64,000 nucleotides of DNA from a virus (IMGVR_UViG_3300028591_000090:1-64000), one strand, 5' to 3'; positions 2,729-57,560 are shown, numbered from the stretch's first letter. Notes: generated by a model not told the origin, from the letters alone. Program-made: numbers and translations.

Positions 2729-3022
2729 ATGAAGAGTTTATATATAATATATTTCAGAATGTATAGTGGAGAAGAGATATACTATACGAAGAAGGTGTAT
2801 GAAAACAGTAGTGAGTATGTAATAGGTACGAAAGATATAAACGAAGCGAGTTTATATAAAGATTTGGTAACAGTAAGACAGATAGTAAGGGGGAAAAAGA
2901 AAATGGTCAAAATATGTACTGAAACGTCAGATAGATTGGGGAGATATGCAGAAGACTATAGAAAAGTGGAGAGTATAGGTATAAGGGAAGTATTATTACA
3001 ATTGGGGGATAAAGTTGAATAA
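2729..3022 (+). CDS. hypothetical protein, paralog of 15225..15524
   Basis: shared LY...M..G...YYT...GT.D...A..YK pattern. Confidence 0.7.
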   Translation: MKSLYIIYFRMYSGEEIYYTKKVYENSSEYVIGTKDINEASLYKDLVTVRQIVRGKKKMVKICTETSDRLGRYAEDYRKVESIGIREVLLQLGDKVE

Positions 3023-47495: not shown

Positions 47496-47539
47496 ATCTT
47501 TATTTTTTTGCAAATATAAAATAAAAATATGAGAAAAAC

Positions 47540-47576
47540 AAAAAAAAGGAGAAACTTTTTAAACAATTCCTCCTCT
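47540..47576 (-). terminator. terminator of RNA operon
   Basis: aggaggaatt/agtttctcct plus T8 on - strand. Confidence 0.6.
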
Positions 47577-47729
47577 ATCTCTTCTTGACTTATCGTCAAG
47601 TAACGCTAAACATAACGCTATCGCATCTGATTGTGATAATTTCTTATTACCAACCTGACAACGTACATTAACAACAATATTTTCCAAATGTTCTTTTGGC
47701 ACGGGAAAAAGATTATTTTATGCTTTTTG

Positions 47730-47805
47730 TGTGTTAGGTTGGATTCGAACCAACGACCTTCTGCTCCACAAACAGACGTTCTAAACCAACTGAACTACTA
47801 ACACC
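47730..47805 (-). tRNA. tRNA-His(GTG)
   Basis: cloverleaf, G-1. Confidence 0.9.
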
Positions 47806-47810
47806 ATGTG

Positions 47811-47884
47811 TTGTTGCGAAGGGACTCGAACCCCTAACGTCCAGAATCAAAATCTGGCATTCTAACCAGTTGAATTACGCAACA
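47811..47884 (-). tRNA. tRNA-Gln(TTG)
   Basis: cloverleaf. Confidence 0.9.
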
Positions 47885-48033
47885 ATAAAAACGGCTTCAC
47901 GTACCGTTTTGTGGGCTTCAATTAGAATACCACGGAAGTTCATGGTGTGTGTGCACCTAACTTCTCTCACCATAAATCCACACAATTAGTGAGACCTAAA
48001 TCATATAATGCTCCAAATAAGGAGACTTCTTTG

Positions 48034-48107
48034 TGGGAACGGAGAGATTCGAACTCTCACTACATAGATTCTAAGTCTATTGCCTCTACCAATTGGGCTA
48101 CGTTCCC
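48034..48107 (-). tRNA. tRNA-Leu(TAG), short variable loop
   Basis: cloverleaf. Confidence 0.88.
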
Positions 48108-48166
48108 ATGTGCCCCATACGGAATCCTCACGCTGGGGCTATGATGACAAGCGTTTTTTATTTAGG

Positions 48167-48248
48167 TGCTTTGAGACAAGTTGGGACTCGAACCCAAATC
48201 CGAGGTTTTATTTTAGACCCCGTGTCTTAACCATTAGACGACAAGCAT
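48167..48248 (-). pseudogene. aberrant tRNA (10-nt anticodon loop, broken acceptor)
   Basis: intact D and T arms. Confidence 0.6.
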
Positions 48249-48263
48249 GAAACACATAAATTG

Positions 48264-48335
48264 TGTTCCGAAAAGGAATCGAACCTTTATTGTCTGCTTA
48301 GAAGGAAGATGTTCTATCCATTGAACTATCGGAAC
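48264..48335 (-). tRNA. tRNA-Arg(TCT)
   Basis: cloverleaf. Confidence 0.88.
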
Positions 48336-48339
48336 TTTT

Positions 48340-48562
48340 GCACACCTAACAGCACTCCTATGGAATTACCCAATGGTCTGTTGCCTTTACTGGCTCAGGG
48401 ACTCTGGTTTGTGTGCTCTACTATAGTCCCTTTTTCGTTAAAATTTGGACGCCTGAAGATGCTTCCCTGCGTGGATACTCACGTCCTCGTTCTTACTTCG
48501 CTACTCACGCTTTTAGTCGACATATTAAACGCTTTTGCTTTTCTGACTCAGTTCATTGCTAG
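48340..48562 (-). ncRNA. unassigned structured RNA ~220 nt
   Basis: GC-richer spacer; ggacg/cgtcc, agggact/agtccct, closing stem. Confidence 0.5.
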
Positions 48563-48564
48563 TG

Positions 48565-48639
48565 TCGTGCATAGGGGATTTGAACCCACTAATTTCTTCC
48601 TTGAAGGGGAAGCGACTTAACCAATTCGTCTAATGCACG
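48565..48639 (-). tRNA. tRNA-Glu(TTC), C33
   Basis: cloverleaf, loop CCTTCAA. Confidence 0.78.
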
Positions 48640-49443
48640 TTTTTTTAATTTATTATAAATCATTCCTTTACCAGCACAACTTCGTGAACAATAAAATGTT
48701 CCAGTTCTAAATTTACCATGTCTATAAAATAATTTACCACAAAAAGCACATTCATAATTATTATCATAACTATTATCATATAGTTCTTCTAAATGTTTTA
48801 CATTATATTTGTCTTTGCAATAATTTATATAAAATAACATATCATCATAATATAAAACTTTAGAATTTTCTGGTAAATGTTTTAATTTTTCTTCTGTTAT
48901 ATTTGTTTTAAAACCTTTTATTTCATATATTATACCATCTATTTCAAAATCTGGATTATAAAAATGTTTTTCTCCATCAAATTCATATTCTAATTTTTTA
49001 TCACATCTTTTTATGTTTGAATTGTTATCAAGATGATAAATAAGAAATGCAAGTTCCCAAGTAGAATCTAAAAAGAAACCTTTATAAAAACCTTTATGTC
49101 CTCTACCACTACCTTTTCTATATCCTCCATACTTAACATTTTCTTTCAACCATTTTTCTTTACATTCTTCTGAACAATATTTAGAATTTCTCTTTCTTAA
49201 ATCAAATTCAGTACTGCAATATTTACATTTTTTAATTTTTGGTATTTTGGCTTTTTCTCTTCTAATTTCGTTATTAAAAGGGACCCATTTACCACCATGC
49301 ATTAAAGTGTAACCAATTTTCTTTTTTGTTTCTTCTGAATGGTGTCGTGTATTTGCACAACTTTTAGAACAAAATCTTCCAGAACCATAATTCCCATTAT
49401 GTTCTTTTCCACAATTTTCACAAATAAAAATTTGATTTTCCAT
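48589..49443 (-). CDS. free-standing PD-(D/E)XK homing-endonuclease-like protein with Zn fingers and NUMOD3
   Basis: STWE...YNPDF...EIKG; HSEETKKKI; CxxC...FCSxSC. Confidence 0.8.
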   Translation of the reverse strand: MENQIFICENCGKEHNGNYGSGRFCSKSCANTRHHSEETKKKIGYTLMHGGKWVPFNNEIRREKAKIPKIKKCKYCSTEFDLRKRNSKYCSEECKEKWLKENVKYGGYRKGSGRGHKGFYKGFFLDSTWELAFLIYHLDNNSNIKRCDKKLEYEFDGEKHFYNPDFEIDGIIYEIKGFKTNITEEKLKHLPENSKVLYYDDMLFYINYCKDKYNVKHLEELYDNSYDNNYECAFCGKLFYRHGKFRTGTFYCSRSCAGKGMIYNKLKKRALDELVKSLPLQGRN

Positions 49444-49580
49444 AATTATTTTTATCTTTTTTTATAGGTTATTGGTAGTAACCTTTATTTTATTTAGTTT
49501 TAAAAAATAGTAGTTAGATAAAACTATGGATAATTTTATCAATTGGCTACCAACCAGATGTCCTACTATTTTTATAGTTT

Positions 49581-49663
49581 ATGCTTGTGTATGATAGGCT
49601 TCGAACCATATGCCTCTCTATCTCTATAGATTGTTCTGCCATATTAAACTACAACACAAGCAT
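49581..49663 (-). pseudogene. aberrant tRNA-like RNA
   Basis: extended acceptor, T-loop, no proper anticodon loop. Confidence 0.55.
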
Positions 49664-49783
49664 TTCGTTTTACTAAAAACTCTACGACTTTGCAAAACTA
49701 CTCCGTGGAAAACGATACACGTTTCATTTACTTAAACCATCCATTGAGACCGGATGCAGTCTCATTTAAGCGTGTGAATTTTG

Positions 49784-49860
49784 CGGTGACAGTAGGATTC
49801 GAACCTACGACCCAGGGATTAACAGTCCCTTGCTCTAAAAACCAACTGAGCTATGTCACC
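49784..49860 (-). tRNA. tRNA-Asn(GTT)
   Basis: cloverleaf. Confidence 0.92.
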
Positions 49861-49864
49861 ATAA

Positions 49865-49937
49865 TATTTAAGTTTGGAATCGAACCAAAGCCTTTCTCAA
49901 TACATGGAGAAGATGCAGACCACTACACTACTTAAAC
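49865..49937 (-). pseudogene. aberrant tRNA (8-nt anticodon loop CATGTATT)
   Basis: acceptor, D and T arms intact. Confidence 0.6.
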
Positions 49938-49938
49938 G

Positions 49939-50012
49939 TGGACCAGACTGGGCTTGAACCAGTGACCTCCTGATTATGAGTCAGTTGCTCTGACCAACTG
50001 AGCTACAGGTCC
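49939..50012 (-). tRNA. tRNA-Ile2/Met(CAT)
   Basis: cloverleaf. Confidence 0.88.
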
Positions 50013-50031
50013 AAAAAAAGTGGTAGAAGGA

Positions 50032-50142
50032 ATAGTTTCAAATCCATAGAAAAACATGGAAATTGTTTATAATTTAATAATTACTGGGTGAACTACTACA
50101 CCCTCTATCCCATTGTTGAAAACTTTTGAGAATACTTTTCTA
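50032..50142 (-). ncRNA. orphan tnpB right-end / omegaRNA-like copy
   Basis: near-identical to 61907-62017. Confidence 0.75.
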
Positions 50143-50159
50143 ATTAATAACTACCACTT

Positions 50160-50286
50160 AAATCTTCGCCGTGCTGACCTTACACCTATGATTGCTACTC
50201 TTACACATATTAGTTGTACACCTAAATATGTGATATGGTGCACCGTTTCACAACCACGCAGACTCGAACTGCACCTGCGACATGCT
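50160..50286 (-). ncRNA. YrlA-type Y RNA (permuted tRNA mimic)
   Basis: order T arm, closed acceptor, D arm; 3' GGCGAAG motif. Confidence 0.7.
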
Positions 50287-50292
50287 TTTTTG

Positions 50293-50363
50293 CTCGGTCG
50301 AAGGGACTCGAACCCTCATACGCCCCCGTCAATGGGGCTGTTCTACCGTTAAACTACAACCAA
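50293..50363 (-). tRNA. atypical tRNA (loop ATTGACG, nominal TGA on class I body)
   Basis: full cloverleaf, non-canonical loop. Confidence 0.55.
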
Positions 50364-50458
50364 GAAACACATTCTAACGCTGCAACATTATTATGTGCCA
50401 ATGGACATAAATGCTTTAATCGTTTGCAGACAATCTTTGCATTCGCCAATCCATTTAG

Positions 50459-50530
50459 AACAAGAAATGAGAATCGAACTCACATATCCAGTTTTGAAGA
50501 CTGGAGCACTAACCGTTGTGCTATTCTTGC
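50459..50530 (-). tRNA. opal suppressor tRNA (TCA), Gly-like body
   Basis: CCAGT-CTTCAAA-ACTGG. Confidence 0.85.
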
Positions 50531-50539
50531 ATTTTTATG

Positions 50540-50626
50540 TGGCTCAAATCGGACTCGAACCGATACGAGCATTTCTGCCCCTGGGATTTTAAGTCCCATG
50601 CGTACTACCAATTTCGCCACTGAGCC
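50540..50626 (-). tRNA. tRNA-Leu(TAA)
   Basis: class II cloverleaf. Confidence 0.92.
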
Positions 50627-50634
50627 AAAATTTG

Positions 50635-50751
50635 AGTCGCCAACTGGATTCGAACCAGTATCTCCAATGTGATTTAGGAAAATCTTACGTATTGTACAGA
50701 ATGAGGCTGTACCGACCTCAAATACGTTGGCACCTATTAGACGATGGCGAC
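50635..50751 (-). ncRNA. tRNA-like RNA with pseudoknot insertion
   Basis: perfect acceptor and T arm, ~45 nt insert. Confidence 0.65.
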
Positions 50752-50757
50752 AAAAAG

Positions 50758-50860
50758 TTGTGTTAGATGGATTCGAACCAACAATGTATGCTATTCTACA
50801 TGCTTATTTACATACTCCTACCACAAATGTAGGTGGGTTTACCATTTCCCCTATAACACG
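50758..50860 (-). pseudogene. atypical tRNA (TTG loop, oversized variable arm)
   Basis: D, anticodon and T arms present. Confidence 0.55.
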
Positions 50861-50867
50861 AATTTTG

Positions 50868-50939
50868 TTGCGAGAGAGGGATTCGAACCCACGACCTACA
50901 GCTTATGAGGCTGCCGAGCTACCTCTGCTCTATCTCGCA
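50868..50939 (-). tRNA. tRNA-Met(CAT), initiator-like
   Basis: cloverleaf. Confidence 0.85.
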
Positions 50940-50952
50940 ATATATTTTATTG

Positions 50953-51026
50953 TGGTCGTTCTACGACTCGAACGTAGGACTTCTTCGGTATCAGCGAAGT
51001 ACTCTAACCAACTGAGTTAAACGACC
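50953..51026 (-). tRNA. tRNA-Ile(GAT)
   Basis: cloverleaf. Confidence 0.88.
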
Positions 51027-51029
51027 AAG

Positions 51030-51435
51030 AATAATCAAAACTAAAAAGTGTGTTTAATCATTAAGTAACATTATAGTAAACACAGATTATTGTCTACATC
51101 CGTAACACGGCTTTCGTTACTAATCACTTTGCAAGCAAAGGCAACAATAATCTTTTACTTTTTTACAAACTCTTTTTCTGTTCGATGGCGAGTTTATTTA
51201 TGGTCCATTTCCGTTGCCAAGTAACATAATTCATAGCAAACAATCACGGAAACCTACGATGAGTTGTTGAGTAACAAACAAAAGTTGCTATATCAAGGAC
51301 GACATATATATAATCGGCTAAATGACCGACTTTCAGAACCTTGTTCTGCTATCCGAGATTATCTTACCTTGATTTAAGATAGATACAAATTCATTGTATC
51401 TCTTGGAGAGTTTAGGCAGTAGTTGTCTTTCTACT
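51030..51435 (-). ncRNA. unassigned large structured RNA ~400 nt
   Basis: no ORF; many hairpins. Confidence 0.55.
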
Positions 51436-51437
51436 TG

Positions 51438-51511
51438 CGGGTAGTACGAGATTCGAACTCGTGAACTCCTCATAGACAGTGAGGAATGATAGACCGCTTC
51501 ACCAACTACCC
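51438..51511 (-). tRNA. tRNA-Asp(GTC)
   Basis: cloverleaf. Confidence 0.9.
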
Positions 51512-51629
51512 AAATTTGAGGTTATTTTTATACGTATGGCTCGTAAACTTATTCTGTCTTTCTTATGCGTTCTGCTGTTACACATTAGTCTAAAGAAGTA
51601 ACATCTATAAGTATATTTACGATTTCCAT

Positions 51630-51730
51630 TTCACCTCAAGCATCATTTGTTTAAATGCTTACGTTTACATCTTTTTCCTTTTCCCGTATGTCAAAGAACT
51701 CGTTTGTTTTATTTAACGATGCAAATATAC
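51630..51730 (-). promoter_or_regulatory. internal promoter plus boxA-like leader 2
   Basis: gtatatttgc; gttctttgacatacgggaaaa shared with 53775-53796. Confidence 0.75.
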
Positions 51731-51785
51731 AACAATGTTTTGAAACAACCAAATAAAACAACAACTTTTTTTTATTTTTTTTTTG

Positions 51786-51871
51786 CGGAGATTGTAGGAC
51801 TTGAACCTACACGTCTTACGACTACTGACAGTTTAGCAAACTGCTCCCTTACCAATTAGGGTTAAATCTCC
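51786..51871 (-). tRNA. tRNA-Ser(GCT)
   Basis: class II cloverleaf. Confidence 0.9.
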
Positions 51872-51881
51872 ATATTATATG

Positions 51882-51954
51882 TACTCGTGCAGAGACTCGA
51901 ACTCCAATCTTCAGATCCGTAGTCTGATATTCTAATCCATTGAACTACACGAGC
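51882..51954 (-). tRNA. tRNA-Arg(ACG)
   Basis: cloverleaf. Confidence 0.9.
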
Positions 51955-51959
51955 AGTTG

Positions 51960-52031
51960 AGCACTCTATTGGAGTCAAACCAATTTATACGGTTTTGCAG
52001 ACCGCCACCTAAATCGTCCGGTACAGAGTGC
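51960..52031 (-). tRNA. tRNA-Cys(GCA)
   Basis: cloverleaf, somewhat divergent. Confidence 0.8.
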
Positions 52032-52195
52032 AAAAATGTGTTGGAAAATCCTCGTGCAACACCACACGCCAACTCAACGATTTGGCTCCATCTCGTAAGA
52101 TGCTACTTTAGAAAGTTTTCCCAAAGCATTCACACAATTAGTGTGAGAGACGTTTCGATCCTACTTTTAACATGTATTATATGTAGGCTATAATG

Positions 52196-52267
52196 AGCAG
52201 ATAAAGAGAATCGAACTCTCATCTCCAGAGTGGAAGTCTGGAGCACTAACCATTGTGCTATATCTGC
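52196..52267 (-). tRNA. tRNA-Gly(TCC)
   Basis: cloverleaf. Confidence 0.9.
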
Positions 52268-52272
52268 ATAAA

Positions 52273-52512
52273 TTATCTTAATTCAATTAATTCTTCTTTT
52301 TCTATTGCTTTACGAATCCAACGCATCAAAATAATTGCTTTATCATAATGGCACATAAACGTAGCAGTTTCTCCTACATCGTGTGTGTCTGCCAAATTGA
52401 TTTCCAATTGATATTTTTTACCACTTTCTGACGTTAATTCATAAATTGCAACACCGCCTGCTTTAACGCAAACCATATCTGCATTTCCTTTAATAATATC
52501 TTTCAAATCCAT
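52273..52512 (-). CDS. conserved small phage protein inside tRNA array
   Basis: DVG.TATF....KAI.LMRWIRKAI. Confidence 0.75.
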   Translation of the reverse strand: MDLKDIIKGNADMVCVKAGGVAIYELTSESGKKYQLEINLADTHDVGETATFMCHYDKAIILMRWIRKAIEKEELIELR

Positions 52513-52531
52513 AATATATGTATTATTTTTG

Positions 52532-52604
52532 TCTGGGTAGCAAGACTCGAACTTGCGACCTGATGGTCCCAAACCACCCGTTCTACCAACTGAACTATAC
52601 CCAG
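52532..52604 (-). tRNA. tRNA-Pro(TGG)
   Basis: cloverleaf. Confidence 0.9.
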
Positions 52605-52613
52605 TTTATTTAG

Positions 52614-52686
52614 TGACTCCGATGAGGTTCGAACTCATGACCCCATCCTTAAAAGGGATGTGCTCTCCCAACTGAGCTACGAAGTC
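52614..52686 (-). tRNA. tRNA-Lys(TTT)
   Basis: cloverleaf. Confidence 0.92.
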
Positions 52687-52954
52687 ATGTGCTAATATCG
52701 TATGTTCTTCGTTTTGTTTGTTCTGGGCGGTTAAAAGAGAACAACAGATTTGGTAGTCTTTTCAATCTTAGCATTTTCTGAAAAGAATCGTTCCGCACCT
52801 ACGTCTAACTTTTGTACTATTCACCACGAGTTTACGATGACCTTGAGTCTGTTTACGATTACCAGTCGTTCCAGAAGTCCATCTACATAGTTACTTTGGC
52901 AAGTTTCGTCTATGCCAGCGTTTGTTTATAACCTCAACGCAATTTGGTATTTTG

Positions 52955-53029
52955 TGGAAGCGATGGGACTTGAACCCACGACTTTCTGCGTGCAAGGCAG
53001 ATGTTCTAGCCAAACTGAACTACACCCCC
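52955..53029 (-). tRNA. tRNA-Ala(TGC)
   Basis: cloverleaf, G3:U70. Confidence 0.9.
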
Positions 53030-53261
53030 ATAAAAGAATCTTGACGTATTTCTTATGAGAATTCCTTCAACGGATTATTTAGTGCCATTAAATAACCATT
53101 CCTTTGATTTTGTCTGTTATGCATAAATGAACTTATGCACTCTAACCATATGTCATATACGTTAGAATGTTTTCCCGACAAATCGTGAAGGTTAAGGCTC
53201 AAAGTACTAAGTTTACCTTTTCTTCACGACTGCTATGATATAGCGTCAGGCTGCAATTGCG

Positions 53262-53346
53262 TGGGAGAGGAGGGATTCGAACCCCCTGTGTTTCTATGTG
53301 CTGGTTTTACAGACCAGTGCTACTCCACCATCGTAGCCGCTCTCCC
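53262..53346 (-). tRNA. tRNA-Tyr(GTA)
   Basis: class II cloverleaf. Confidence 0.9.
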
Positions 53347-53352
53347 AAAATG

Positions 53353-53439
53353 CGGAGAGGGAGGGATTTGAACCCCCGGTGCTTTTTAGGGCACGACGGT
53401 TTTCAAGACCGTTGCAATAAGCCTCTCTGCCACCTCTCC
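53353..53439 (-). tRNA. tRNA-Ser(TGA)
   Basis: class II cloverleaf. Confidence 0.92.
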
Positions 53440-53452
53440 GAGTAAAATTTTG

Positions 53453-53526
53453 TTGGCTTAGTGAGACTCGAACTCACACTTTATAGGTTTTGAATCTATT
53501 TCCTCTACCGATTGGGATACAAGCCA
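53453..53526 (-). tRNA. tRNA-Leu(CAA), short variable loop
   Basis: cloverleaf. Confidence 0.85.
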
Positions 53527-53533
53527 ATGTTGT

Positions 53534-53587
53534 CTATCTAGTGTGATTCGAACACACGTGCTCATGTTTCTAATGCAGGCCTAGATA
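53534..53587 (-). pseudogene. D-armless tRNA remnant
   Basis: TATCTAG/CTAGATA and GTGTG-TTCGAAT-CACAC. Confidence 0.55.
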
Positions 53588-53601
53588 ATGATAAAATTAA
53601 G

Positions 53602-53674
53602 AGCTCCCACACGGATTTGAACCGCAGTCCCCTGATTACAAGTCAGGTATAATAACCAACTATACGATAGGAGC
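53602..53674 (-). tRNA. tRNA-Thr(TGT)
   Basis: cloverleaf. Confidence 0.9.
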
Positions 53675-53713
53675 GTAAGAAGGTTTTTGTTGTTACACAG
53701 GTGGATAAACCAC

Positions 53714-53850
53714 TTCACCTTTAGCATCATTTAATAAATGCTTCTGCGTTTGTTTGAATTTTGCTCTATAATCTTTTTCCCGTATGTCAAAGAACTTTTG
53801 GATTATTTGTTGTCGGTTTATCCATTCCGATTTTTTTTGCAAATATACAC
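53714..53850 (-). promoter_or_regulatory. promoter plus boxA-like leader 1 of RNA operon
   Basis: gtatatttgc; aagttctttgacatacggg. Confidence 0.75.
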
Positions 53851-53864
53851 AATATTTTTAAATT

Positions 53865-54027
53865 AAAAAAGGCTTTTGAATTTTTTTTATGTTCAAAAGC
53901 CTTTTCGATATATATATTGTGTATTGATTTCTACCTAAAAGACTTTTGAACATAAACGAGGGGCACTTTCGCAATTTTTATGTTGCGAATACAATGTTGT
54001 TCCTGCTATGTTAAAAATCTTTTTCAT
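53865..54027 (-). promoter_or_regulatory. putative leader-peptide attenuator (30-aa ORF 54027..53935)
   Basis: mutually exclusive 1:2 and 2:3 hairpins with T-run. Confidence 0.6.
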
Positions 54028-54219
54028 TTTTTTTATTTATTATTAAATTTTTATTTCTTTTTAAATTTTAAATTTTGGTAAACATTCATCATTTTCTTTT
54101 TTTAATTTTTCTAAATCACTCTTATATGGTTTTCTACCATTTTTTTGATTTTTCTTTAATCTTCCACCACCAATAAGAGGGATTCTTTTTCCAACATAAA
54201 ATCCCATAATTTTTAAATT

Positions 54220-56922: not shown

Positions 56923-56950
56923 AATTTATTTTTTTTTAGTTTTTTTTAAA

Positions 56951-56971
56951 AAAAAGGGTTTGTGAAACCCT
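56951..56971 (-). terminator. intrinsic terminator
   Basis: agggttt-cac-aaaccct plus T-run. Confidence 0.75.
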
Positions 56972-57520
56972 ACCACACTATGTTACCATAGATAAACAAC
57001 GCCTTTCACTAGTATACTTGGCATCAATCGTAATATGAGTTTATATCTCATGTTCTCTAACTAGTATAACGAGGGTTTCCCTTAGCCGCAGCACCCACGA
57101 TGATATAGTTGTTTGTTGTGGTCTTGACTGCTTTACCATATTGAAATTCTTGCAAGTAAGTTTGTTTTGAATATATGTAGGATTTCATACCTACAACTTC
57201 CTACAGCCTAGTAGTCCTCTGATTCTTGACGGTAATATATTCTCAAACCAATTTCAACTTAGGTATCTCCTTTTCAGTCTACACGATTATAAGAATCTTT
57301 TATCCAGTGCAATGGGCTGTCTTCTTCCATTTTATTGACAGCATCTTCTCATTTTCGCTCGGAATAATCCTTACACATTATTAGTTAGTGTTACAAATGT
57401 AATAGATTCACCATACAATGCCTACGGCTTACTCTTATGCCTTTACCAAGGCAGCTATTACATTAAGGATTTCCCGAATTTAGGAGATTCTACATAGGGA
57501 TTTCTCGCCTATGCACACAA
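56970..57520 (-). ncRNA. free-standing group I intron-like RNA
   Basis: P3, P4, P5, P6, P7, P8, P9.0 pairings identifiable. Confidence 0.8.
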
Positions 57521-57560
57521 AATTATTTCAAAGAACTCTTTAATAAATTTTGGAGGTTAT

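Follow-up and report, generated by a model that had tools for sequence, protein, structure and literature searches.

How does a phage transcribe several kilobases of untranslated, hairpin-rich RNA past Rho and past the hairpins inside the transcript? This question, previously unaddressed, is raised by a transfer RNA (tRNA) array in IMGVR_UViG_3300028591_000090:1-64000. The whole 64-kb stretch (below: the window) is a portion of a linear IMG/VR virus record of 183.6 kb (CheckV completeness 69%), and on its minus strand ARAGORN finds 24 tRNA genes at 53674-47729. A first-pass annotation, made from the sequence of the window, had proposed that the array is built like a ribosomal RNA (rRNA) operon, with boxA leaders and a long helix between leader and trailer; the comparative data presented here support both halves of this proposal. 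In our view the tRNA/non-coding RNA operon probably copies the framing of the host rRNA precursor, most closely that of pre-23S, with boxA antitermination and a closing helix. A host-type boxA combined with a closing helix would be a concrete and testable answer to the problem of Rho and hairpins.

The phage infects Bacteroidota and is of sheep-gut origin. Nearly all of the record's DNA is found in one sheep-gut metagenome run, and parts of it in further gut runs, several of which are labelled sheep, goat or bovine.

For rrn operons, boxA, antitermination by Nus factors and helices between leader and trailer are textbook knowledge, and boxA is also known from lambdoid nut sites. In Escherichia coli one point mutation in boxA, in the region of the conserved U-tract of its core, is enough to prevent rrnTAC from forming. 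BoxA is necessary and sufficient for rrnTAC assembly, and in Escherichia coli a leader-trailer helix of more than 17 base pairs (bp) is essential for 30S biogenesis (PMC10250234). It has further been proposed that boxA, bound to NusB, acts as a tether that promotes the formation of this helix (PMC10250234).

The leaders carry a host-type boxA

Promoters were assigned from a motif alone, the octamer TATATTTG. This is a TAnnTTTG -7 element of the Bacteroidota promoter type; it recurs before genes across the window, and on the minus strand of the array region it has three copies (53847-53840, 51729-51722 and 47518-47511). The first two, P1 and P2, are each followed by the same 21-mer, GTTCTTTGACATACGGGAAAA (53795-53775 and 51699-51679). 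The -7 elements sit 45 nt (P1) and 23 nt (P2) upstream of their 21-mers, while the first tRNAs start 101 nt past the 21-mer in leader 1 and 168 nt past it in leader 2. In addition to the promoter, the two leaders share an AGCAUUU...AAAUGAUGCU hairpin (53742-53723 and 51660-51638) and the blocks AGGUGAA(G/A)UGG and GUGUAACA. That a second, internal promoter has the same leader (51679-51699) and the same hairpin had been claimed before, and is confirmed by the identical 21-mer and the shared hairpin. The full motif behind a promoter occurs at only these two sites in the 183.6-kb record. In local folds of the leaders boxA is unpaired or weakly paired, but these folds have low ensemble support, with z-scores of -2.3 and +0.3.

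The 21-mer was compared with host rrn operons, starting from 120 Bacteroidota 16S loci taken with a 16S-specific pattern. Bacteroidota 16S leaders carry GTTC[A/T]TTGA[A/C]A 96-220 nt upstream of 16S, and GTTCTTTGACAT of the phage fits this boxA consensus of the host phylum. A search with the 21-mer, allowing up to 3 mismatches, in 401 Bacteroidota genomes gives multi-copy matches such as GTTCTTTGACATATTGGAAAA, with two mismatches, i.e. 19/21 identity that includes the GGAAAA part. Matches of this type are located in the 16S-23S spacer, past the spacer tRNAs and shortly before 23S. An exact host 16-mer, GTTCTTTGACATATTG, is found 60-140 nt before 23S in all nine of its copies in five genomes, and at other tRNA operons in none of the nine. 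The 19/21 match and the position of the GTTCTTTGACATATTG copies together indicate that the phage element is closest to the pre-23S boxA, from which it differs at bases 14-15 (CG versus TT). The proposed boxA leaders thus hold up: they match the rrn boxA of the host phylum, follow promoters and precede genes for stable RNAs.

Alternatively, the 21-mer could be bound by another host factor or by a factor of the phage itself, or could stabilize the 5' end; it would then resemble boxA by common descent or chance and have no part in Nus antitermination. This would fit the fact that two phage lineages, unrelated in other respects, and the 5' untranslated region of one protein gene have its 3' part, ACGGGAAAA, in identical form, which exceeds what a boxA core of ~12 nt needs. 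It would also fit the absence of exact copies of GTTCTTTGACATACGGGAAAA from 185,579 reference genomes. However, the 19/21 identity is to a bona fide rrn spacer element and extends to GGAAAA, and the exact host-type boxA 16-mer is present in more than 113 IMG/VR contigs (a lower bound), many of them ahead of tRNA arrays. Further, neither a NusB nor an RNase III gene is found in the 183-kb record (69% complete), while RNase III is found in a Bacteroides control genome; host factors are therefore the simplest partners. We consider a function outside Nus antitermination quite improbable.

Similar elements are also found in other settings. In a JGI metagenome contig (L183, match at 2978-2998, minus strand of the locus) an exact copy of GTTCTTTGACATACGGGAAAA precedes the ATG of a protein-coding gene by ~50 nt, and no tRNA is close to it; messenger RNAs (mRNAs) may also have leaders of the boxA type. 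In the window itself a third boxA-like motif, GTTCTTTGAAAT (57536-57525, minus strand), is found immediately behind a protein gene's stop codon. The non-coding stretch that begins with it (56950-57536, minus strand) is ~590 nt long, has no family in Rfam and ends in a GC hairpin and T run near 56950.

Genome G076 has six boxA-like copies of the form GTTC[T/A/C]TTGACATA[G/A]CGGAAAA, five on L174/L175 (contigs C42 and C43) and the sixth on C2. They are ~1.6 kb apart and each is followed by the same conserved sequence of ~100 nt. We rejected them as leaders of rRNA or tRNA, as they head a repeated element without any rRNA or tRNA of Rfam.

Leader 1 and the trailer form a long helix in the model

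An inverted-repeat search shows that 47701-47716 and 53768-53783, 6,051 nt apart, are complementary at 16 of 16 positions. The pairing described in the first-pass annotation, 16 perfect bp between leader 1 and the trailer plus an imperfect extension, was reproduced with the same sequences and coordinates. The trailer starts 13 nt past the last tRNA, tRNA-His. With RNAduplex the core helix is 17 bp long (16 Watson-Crick and one G-U), joining 53784-53768 to 47716-47700. It is followed by an internal loop (GACA / CCA) and by 7 bp that include the boxA core (GUUCUUU, 53795-53789, with AAAGAAC, 47696-47690). Beyond a 1-nt bulge there are 6 more bp (53802-53797 with 47688-47683) and then another 4-8 bp. 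The flanking complementarity, with 17 contiguous, 7, 6 and 4-8 bp, thus exceeds 17 bp as it does in rRNA-type precursors. The predicted energy is -38.8 kcal/mol for segments of 71 x 61 nt and -46.9 kcal/mol for wider segments. Leader 2 pairs with the same trailer by 13 + 7 bp, at -26 to -29 kcal/mol.

To what degree could such pairing arise by chance? All 3,197 same-strand tiles of 61 nt in the window were used as possible partners. For leader 1 the trailer is the best tile of all, at -38.7 kcal/mol, while the runner-up is at -25.2 and the mean is -12.0 (standard deviation 3.5). For leader 2 it is also the best of the 3,197, by a smaller margin (-28.8 versus -26.4). When the trailer is shuffled (n=1,000) the z-scores are -10.3 for leader 1 and -6.7 for leader 2. 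Rank, margin and shuffling together exclude chance for leader 1. The suggestion that both transcripts could close on one trailer is in agreement with the top rank of the trailer for leader 2 as well.

The arms of the helix bracket the array: the leader arm lies between the promoter and the first tRNA, and the trailer between the last tRNA and the terminator.

The helix has the register of host pre-rRNA

In most of 44 host loci, 12-17 nt separate the first G of boxA from the start of the longest helix between leader and spacer of pre-16S. The sequences of these helices vary between taxa yet always match each other; examples are ATTGAATTGACAGCG with TGCTGTTAATTTAAT, AAGAAACAGCAAG with CTTGTTGTTTCTT and GTAGAAATAGCGAAAT with ATTTCGCTATTTCTAT. 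Two pre-23S precursors of hosts have a trailer that is complementary to the 3' half of boxA together with the adjoining downstream bases. The phage helix starts at +12/+13 from the first G of boxA and, past the loop, also includes the boxA core. Its position relative to boxA is therefore fixed as in the host operons, where it is +12 to +17 or inside the 3' half.

The similarity to the boxA and pre-23S helix of the Bacteroidota 16S-23S spacer extends further than the 19/21 identity to GTTCTTTGACATATTGGAAAA. In both, the leader strand of the helix begins inside boxA or immediately past it, and its partner is located directly downstream of the mature RNA, and in Bacteroidota rrn operons, as in the phage unit, tRNAs precede or follow within one transcript. 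There are also clear differences: the phage helix encloses 24 tRNAs, spacers and two open reading frames (6 kb) instead of a single rRNA of 2.9 kb, two promoters, each with a boxA leader, share one trailer, and the elements are encoded by the phage.

BoxA-led tRNA arrays in other phages

Among the IMG/VR matches listed for the host-type 16-mer, 32 contigs have a tRNA array, with as many as 19 genes, that begins no more than 250 nt away. The other 16-mer, GTTCTTTGACATACGG, has 31 IMG/VR matches, which are in coding or other contexts in all but L003.

The presence of a helix was examined in 16 non-redundant arrays whose ends lie inside the DNA examined. RNAduplex with windows of 150 nt did not separate the trailers from controls, as it permits long loops, and we used a rank test of ungapped helices instead. 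Here the best ungapped complement to the region from boxA to +40 is sought in the 300 nt behind the last tRNA and compared with control windows. The best complement behind the last tRNA is above every control in four arrays: that of the window (17 bp), L188 (15 bp, 5 nt past tRNA 18), L278 (15 bp, 1 nt past tRNA 9) and L247 (18 bp). L293 is near the top, with 11 bp, 2 nt past a tRNA. Over the 16 arrays, the Fisher p-value is 0.005. L188, L278 and L293 carry phage proteins of PHROG.

All five arrays pair positions +13 to +22, and the pairs differ between them at +14, +15 and +18-22. Such differing but matched pairs point to compensatory variation between independent phages, i.e. covariation at the level of the class. 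The arrays also differ in how much of boxA is paired. The helices of L188 and L278 cover only +7/+10 onward and leave GTTCTTT free, while in L238 and L274 the boxA core itself is paired; in L293 it is also inside the pairing.

These comparisons bear on whether the complementarity acts at the RNA level. It might instead be an inverted repeat of the DNA, either a relic of an inverted duplication, a product of recombination or the ends of a mobile cassette, or the trailer might be an antisense boxA. The arms do flank the entire cassette, and a gene for an HNH homing endonuclease lies within the array. However, homologous recombination needs more than 15-17 bp, the helix has the same register to boxA as the helices of host pre-rRNA, and the sequences vary from phage to phage yet match each other within each. 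An antisense boxA was rejected since there is no TAnnTTTG promoter on the plus strand upstream of the trailer and since in L188 and L278 the complement leaves out the boxA core, which an antisense boxA would have to cover. Altogether, we regard explanations without an RNA helix as very improbable.

Two more observations were made among these contigs. In L247 (minus strand of the locus, ~3.1 kb past boxA) a terminator-like hairpin with its T run immediately precedes the trailer strand of 18 bp, which would therefore be transcribed only upon read-through. In L192 (5097-5172, plus strand) and ~10 similar IMG/VR contigs a DUF2693-FD RNA (RF02926, 75 bits) immediately precedes a host-type boxA; a stretch of ~1 kb in which Rfam matches nothing comes next, and then a tRNA. 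The combination of DUF2693-FD RNA and boxA is a second recurring boxA context in Bacteroidota phages.

Close strains and a second lineage

Relatives were sought in IMG/VR through the flanking proteins and none was found there. Two Logan contigs, L178 and L179, contain a copy of the downstream protein that is 87-88% identical. In their trailers all paired bases are unchanged, and the only differences within the paired stretch are in the 3-nt internal loop. In L179 an additional tRNA-like sequence of ~70 nt has been inserted behind tRNA-His and ahead of the trailer (L179:1700-1790, plus strand); it is missing in the window and in L178, and the trailer of L179 is still behind the last gene. On the leader side, contigs X4 and X5 from two other runs have only two differences from the window, at 53762 and 53803, and neither position is paired in the model.

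The ~130 nt from trailer to terminator (47545-47672, minus strand) are near-invariant in the three strains and fold into three small hairpins. This region may be a further small RNA or a short open reading frame.

In a second lineage, L003/L182, the identical 21-mer is located directly behind a terminator and a TATATTTG promoter, and directly ahead of an array of eight tRNAs.

Proposed mechanism and its difficulties

Following what is known from rrn operons, the nascent boxA of each promoter would recruit the host antitermination complex nucleated by NusB/NusE. RNA polymerase would thereby escape both Rho and intrinsic terminators over ~6 kb of RNA that is untranslated and rich in hairpins. 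This would include the terminator-like hairpin at 47910-47888, which is also kept in L178 and L179 and which transcription must pass, since it precedes tRNA-Gln and tRNA-His. The bases just 3' of boxA, and the boxA core, would then pair with the trailer as it emerges 13 nt past the last tRNA. According to the tethering model for rrn, a boxA held by the polymerase would retain the leader at the RNA exit channel up to the emergence of the trailer. The two would form a helix of ~30 bp that closes the operon end to end. This helix would likely be a substrate of a double-strand-specific RNase (RNase III) or a clamp that protects the ends.

A number of observations weigh against this model. A clear ungapped helix is found in only about 5 of the 16 arrays tested; among boxA-led phage arrays the helix is recurrent, not universal. 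The tRNA array of Cellulophaga phage phi4:1 has no boxA. The L003/L182 array has no complement in its trailer although it has the 21-mer, which indicates that boxA has a role of its own and that the helix is an optional addition. On covariation in relatives the picture is mixed: the trailer is kept in two strains and five arrays have differing, matched pairs, but this lineage has no helix. Further, the comparison with L178 and L179 is limited to the trailer side and gives no covariation within the lineage, and the conservation is not specific to the helix, as it is just as high in the 130 nt behind the trailer.

There are also difficulties of a more mechanistic kind. RNase P should cut the leader off the first tRNA well ahead of the synthesis of the trailer, so the helix needs either the proposed tether or pairing in trans. 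The tRNAs of the array have no encoded CCA and do not need RNase III for their maturation. Nus-factor binding, antitermination and RNase III cleavage in this phage are what we infer from the sequence. The sole RNA library that contains the sequence, a sheep-gut metatranscriptome, consists of contigs (exact across 51220-51810 and 53741-54100), from which neither ends nor an origin in RNA, as opposed to carried-over DNA, can be read. Contig matches over the array from sequencing runs are mostly tRNA cross-matches of other organisms.

The helix might have another role: by pairing with the boxA core the trailer might strip NusB/NusE from it and make the polymerase termination-competent again before it reaches the terminator at 47576-47545. 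That the trailer covers the boxA core and that a strong intrinsic terminator follows ~95 nt on are consistent with antitermination being switched off at the end of the operon. The core is paired in the window, L238, L274 and L293, and the 3' half of boxA in host pre-23S; according to PMC2800207 and PMC3177189, single-stranded boxA is what NusB/NusE bind. However, the helices of L188 and L278, from +7/+10 onward, leave GTTCTTT free. We find such switching unlikely as the explanation of the helix; it is compatible with cleavage by RNase III and may be an alternative or additional role. We know of no experiment on a switch of this type.

A broader idea is that boxA and the closing helix form a general, transferable module for stable RNAs, which phages of several phyla have copied from pre-23S/16S, and where the trailer doubles as an anti-boxA that re-arms termination. 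We regard this as conceivable, though rather doubtful. If true, the same would hold for the rrn operons of Bacteroidota, in which the trailer is likewise complementary to boxA in its 3' half.

Relation to known systems

What is found here, i.e. boxA leaders and complementary ends around a phage tRNA array, is a known RNA-operon architecture in a new genetic context. A full-text literature search gave no paper in which boxA or a leader-trailer helix is described for the tRNA arrays of phages.

In the boxB-boxA-boxC leader and pre-16S of E. coli rrn operons (PMC10250234), as in the phage, boxA is located behind the promoter, a long-range helix exceeds 17 bp, and the transcript is untranslated and must escape Rho. 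However, in E. coli boxA is outside the helix, with boxC 18-19 nt downstream inside it, while the phage helix abuts and includes boxA. Unlike in E. coli rrn, no boxB or boxC was identified in the phage leaders, and the role of the E. coli helix in ribosome assembly has no counterpart for tRNAs.

Lambdoid nut sites (boxA-boxB and N) resemble the leaders described here in that a phage transcript carries a boxA of host type, through which the RNA polymerase of the host is modified (in the present phage, would be modified). Here, in contrast, there is no evident pair of boxB hairpin and N protein, and the target is a stable-RNA operon and not an mRNA. Lambdoid nut sites have no long-range helix and belong to another host phylum.

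The tRNA cluster of phage T4 is also transcribed as a polycistronic precursor and has homing endonuclease genes among its tRNAs, and RNase III has been implicated in the processing of the precursor. To our knowledge, neither boxA nor a leader-trailer helix has been described for it.

Arrays of tRNA genes are common in phages and are being linked to codon usage, recoding and anti-defence. If the proposed mechanism holds, Nus antitermination and end pairing of the rRNA type would gain a new class of transcripts as well as a phylum, Bacteroidota, in which this machinery has hardly been studied. As tRNAs are small and easily measured products, the array would be a natural system for the boxA-tether model of helix formation. 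Further, a boxA of the host phylum is a sequence handle for the prediction of phage hosts.

Layout of the operon

The features of the operon are listed in Table 1. No terminator is found ahead of P2, and transcripts from P1 should therefore read through. From the positions of promoters and terminator, the unit would be ~6.3 kb from P1, with a nested unit of ~4.2 kb from P2.

Table 1. Features of the tRNA operon, in the direction of transcription (window coordinates).
Feature	Position	Strand	Remarks
Intrinsic terminator of upstream transcript	53867..53905	-	Directly before P1; 14/14-bp perfect hairpin + T run
Promoter P1, TATATTTG	53840..53847	-	Extended block ATTG(T)TGTATATTTGCA also at P2
Leader 1 boxA-like 21-mer, GTTCTTTGACATACGGGAAAA	53775..53795	-	19/21 versus host pre-23S boxA region
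Helix leader strand	53768..53810	-	Blocks 53810-53807, 53802-53797, 53795-53789 (boxA core), 53784-53768 (17 bp)
Leader 1 hairpin, AGCAU...AUGCU	53723..53742	-	Common to leader 2
tRNA array	47729..53674	-	ARAGORN; 24 tRNAs + weak tRNA-like matches, spacers, two open reading frames
Internal promoter P2, TATATTTG	51722..51729	-	Inside array; no terminator ahead
Leader 2 boxA-like 21-mer	51679..51699	-	Same as leader 1; pairs same trailer, 13 + 7 bp
Leader 2 hairpin, AAGCAU...AUGCUU	51638..51660	-	Counterpart of leader 1 hairpin
Terminator-like hairpin + T run inside array, ahead of last two tRNAs (Gln, His)	47888..47910	-	
Helix trailer strand	47670..47716	-	47716-47700, loop 47699-47697, 47696-47690, bulge 47689, 47688-47683, 47677-47670
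Intrinsic terminator of array transcript	47545..47576	-	12-bp stem + T8; ~95 nt past trailer strand
Promoter TATATTTG of next protein-coding gene	47511..47518	-	Marks end of RNA operon

In the array region an Rfam scan finds tRNAs only and no other family, adding a few weak tRNA-like matches to those of ARAGORN. The spacers within the array are non-coding and 150-400 nt long, and there are also two open reading frames, one of which is HNH-endonuclease-like. The latter (48589-49443, minus strand; 284 aa) matches the HNH endonuclease phrog_1271 with E = 6e-11 and is likely a homing endonuclease; its final ~50 nt overlap tRNA-Glu (48564-48639).

Two of the tRNAs are unusual. One with the anticodon UCA, which reads UGA, is 84% identical over 67 nt to the tRNA-Gly(UCC) of the array (loci 50458-50530 and 52195-52267, minus strand) and looks like a suppressor derived from tRNA-Gly. 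The other, at 49865-49937 (minus strand) between tRNA-Met and tRNA-Asn, is called by ARAGORN with a 4-base anticodon (tgta) and scores 42 bits in Rfam.

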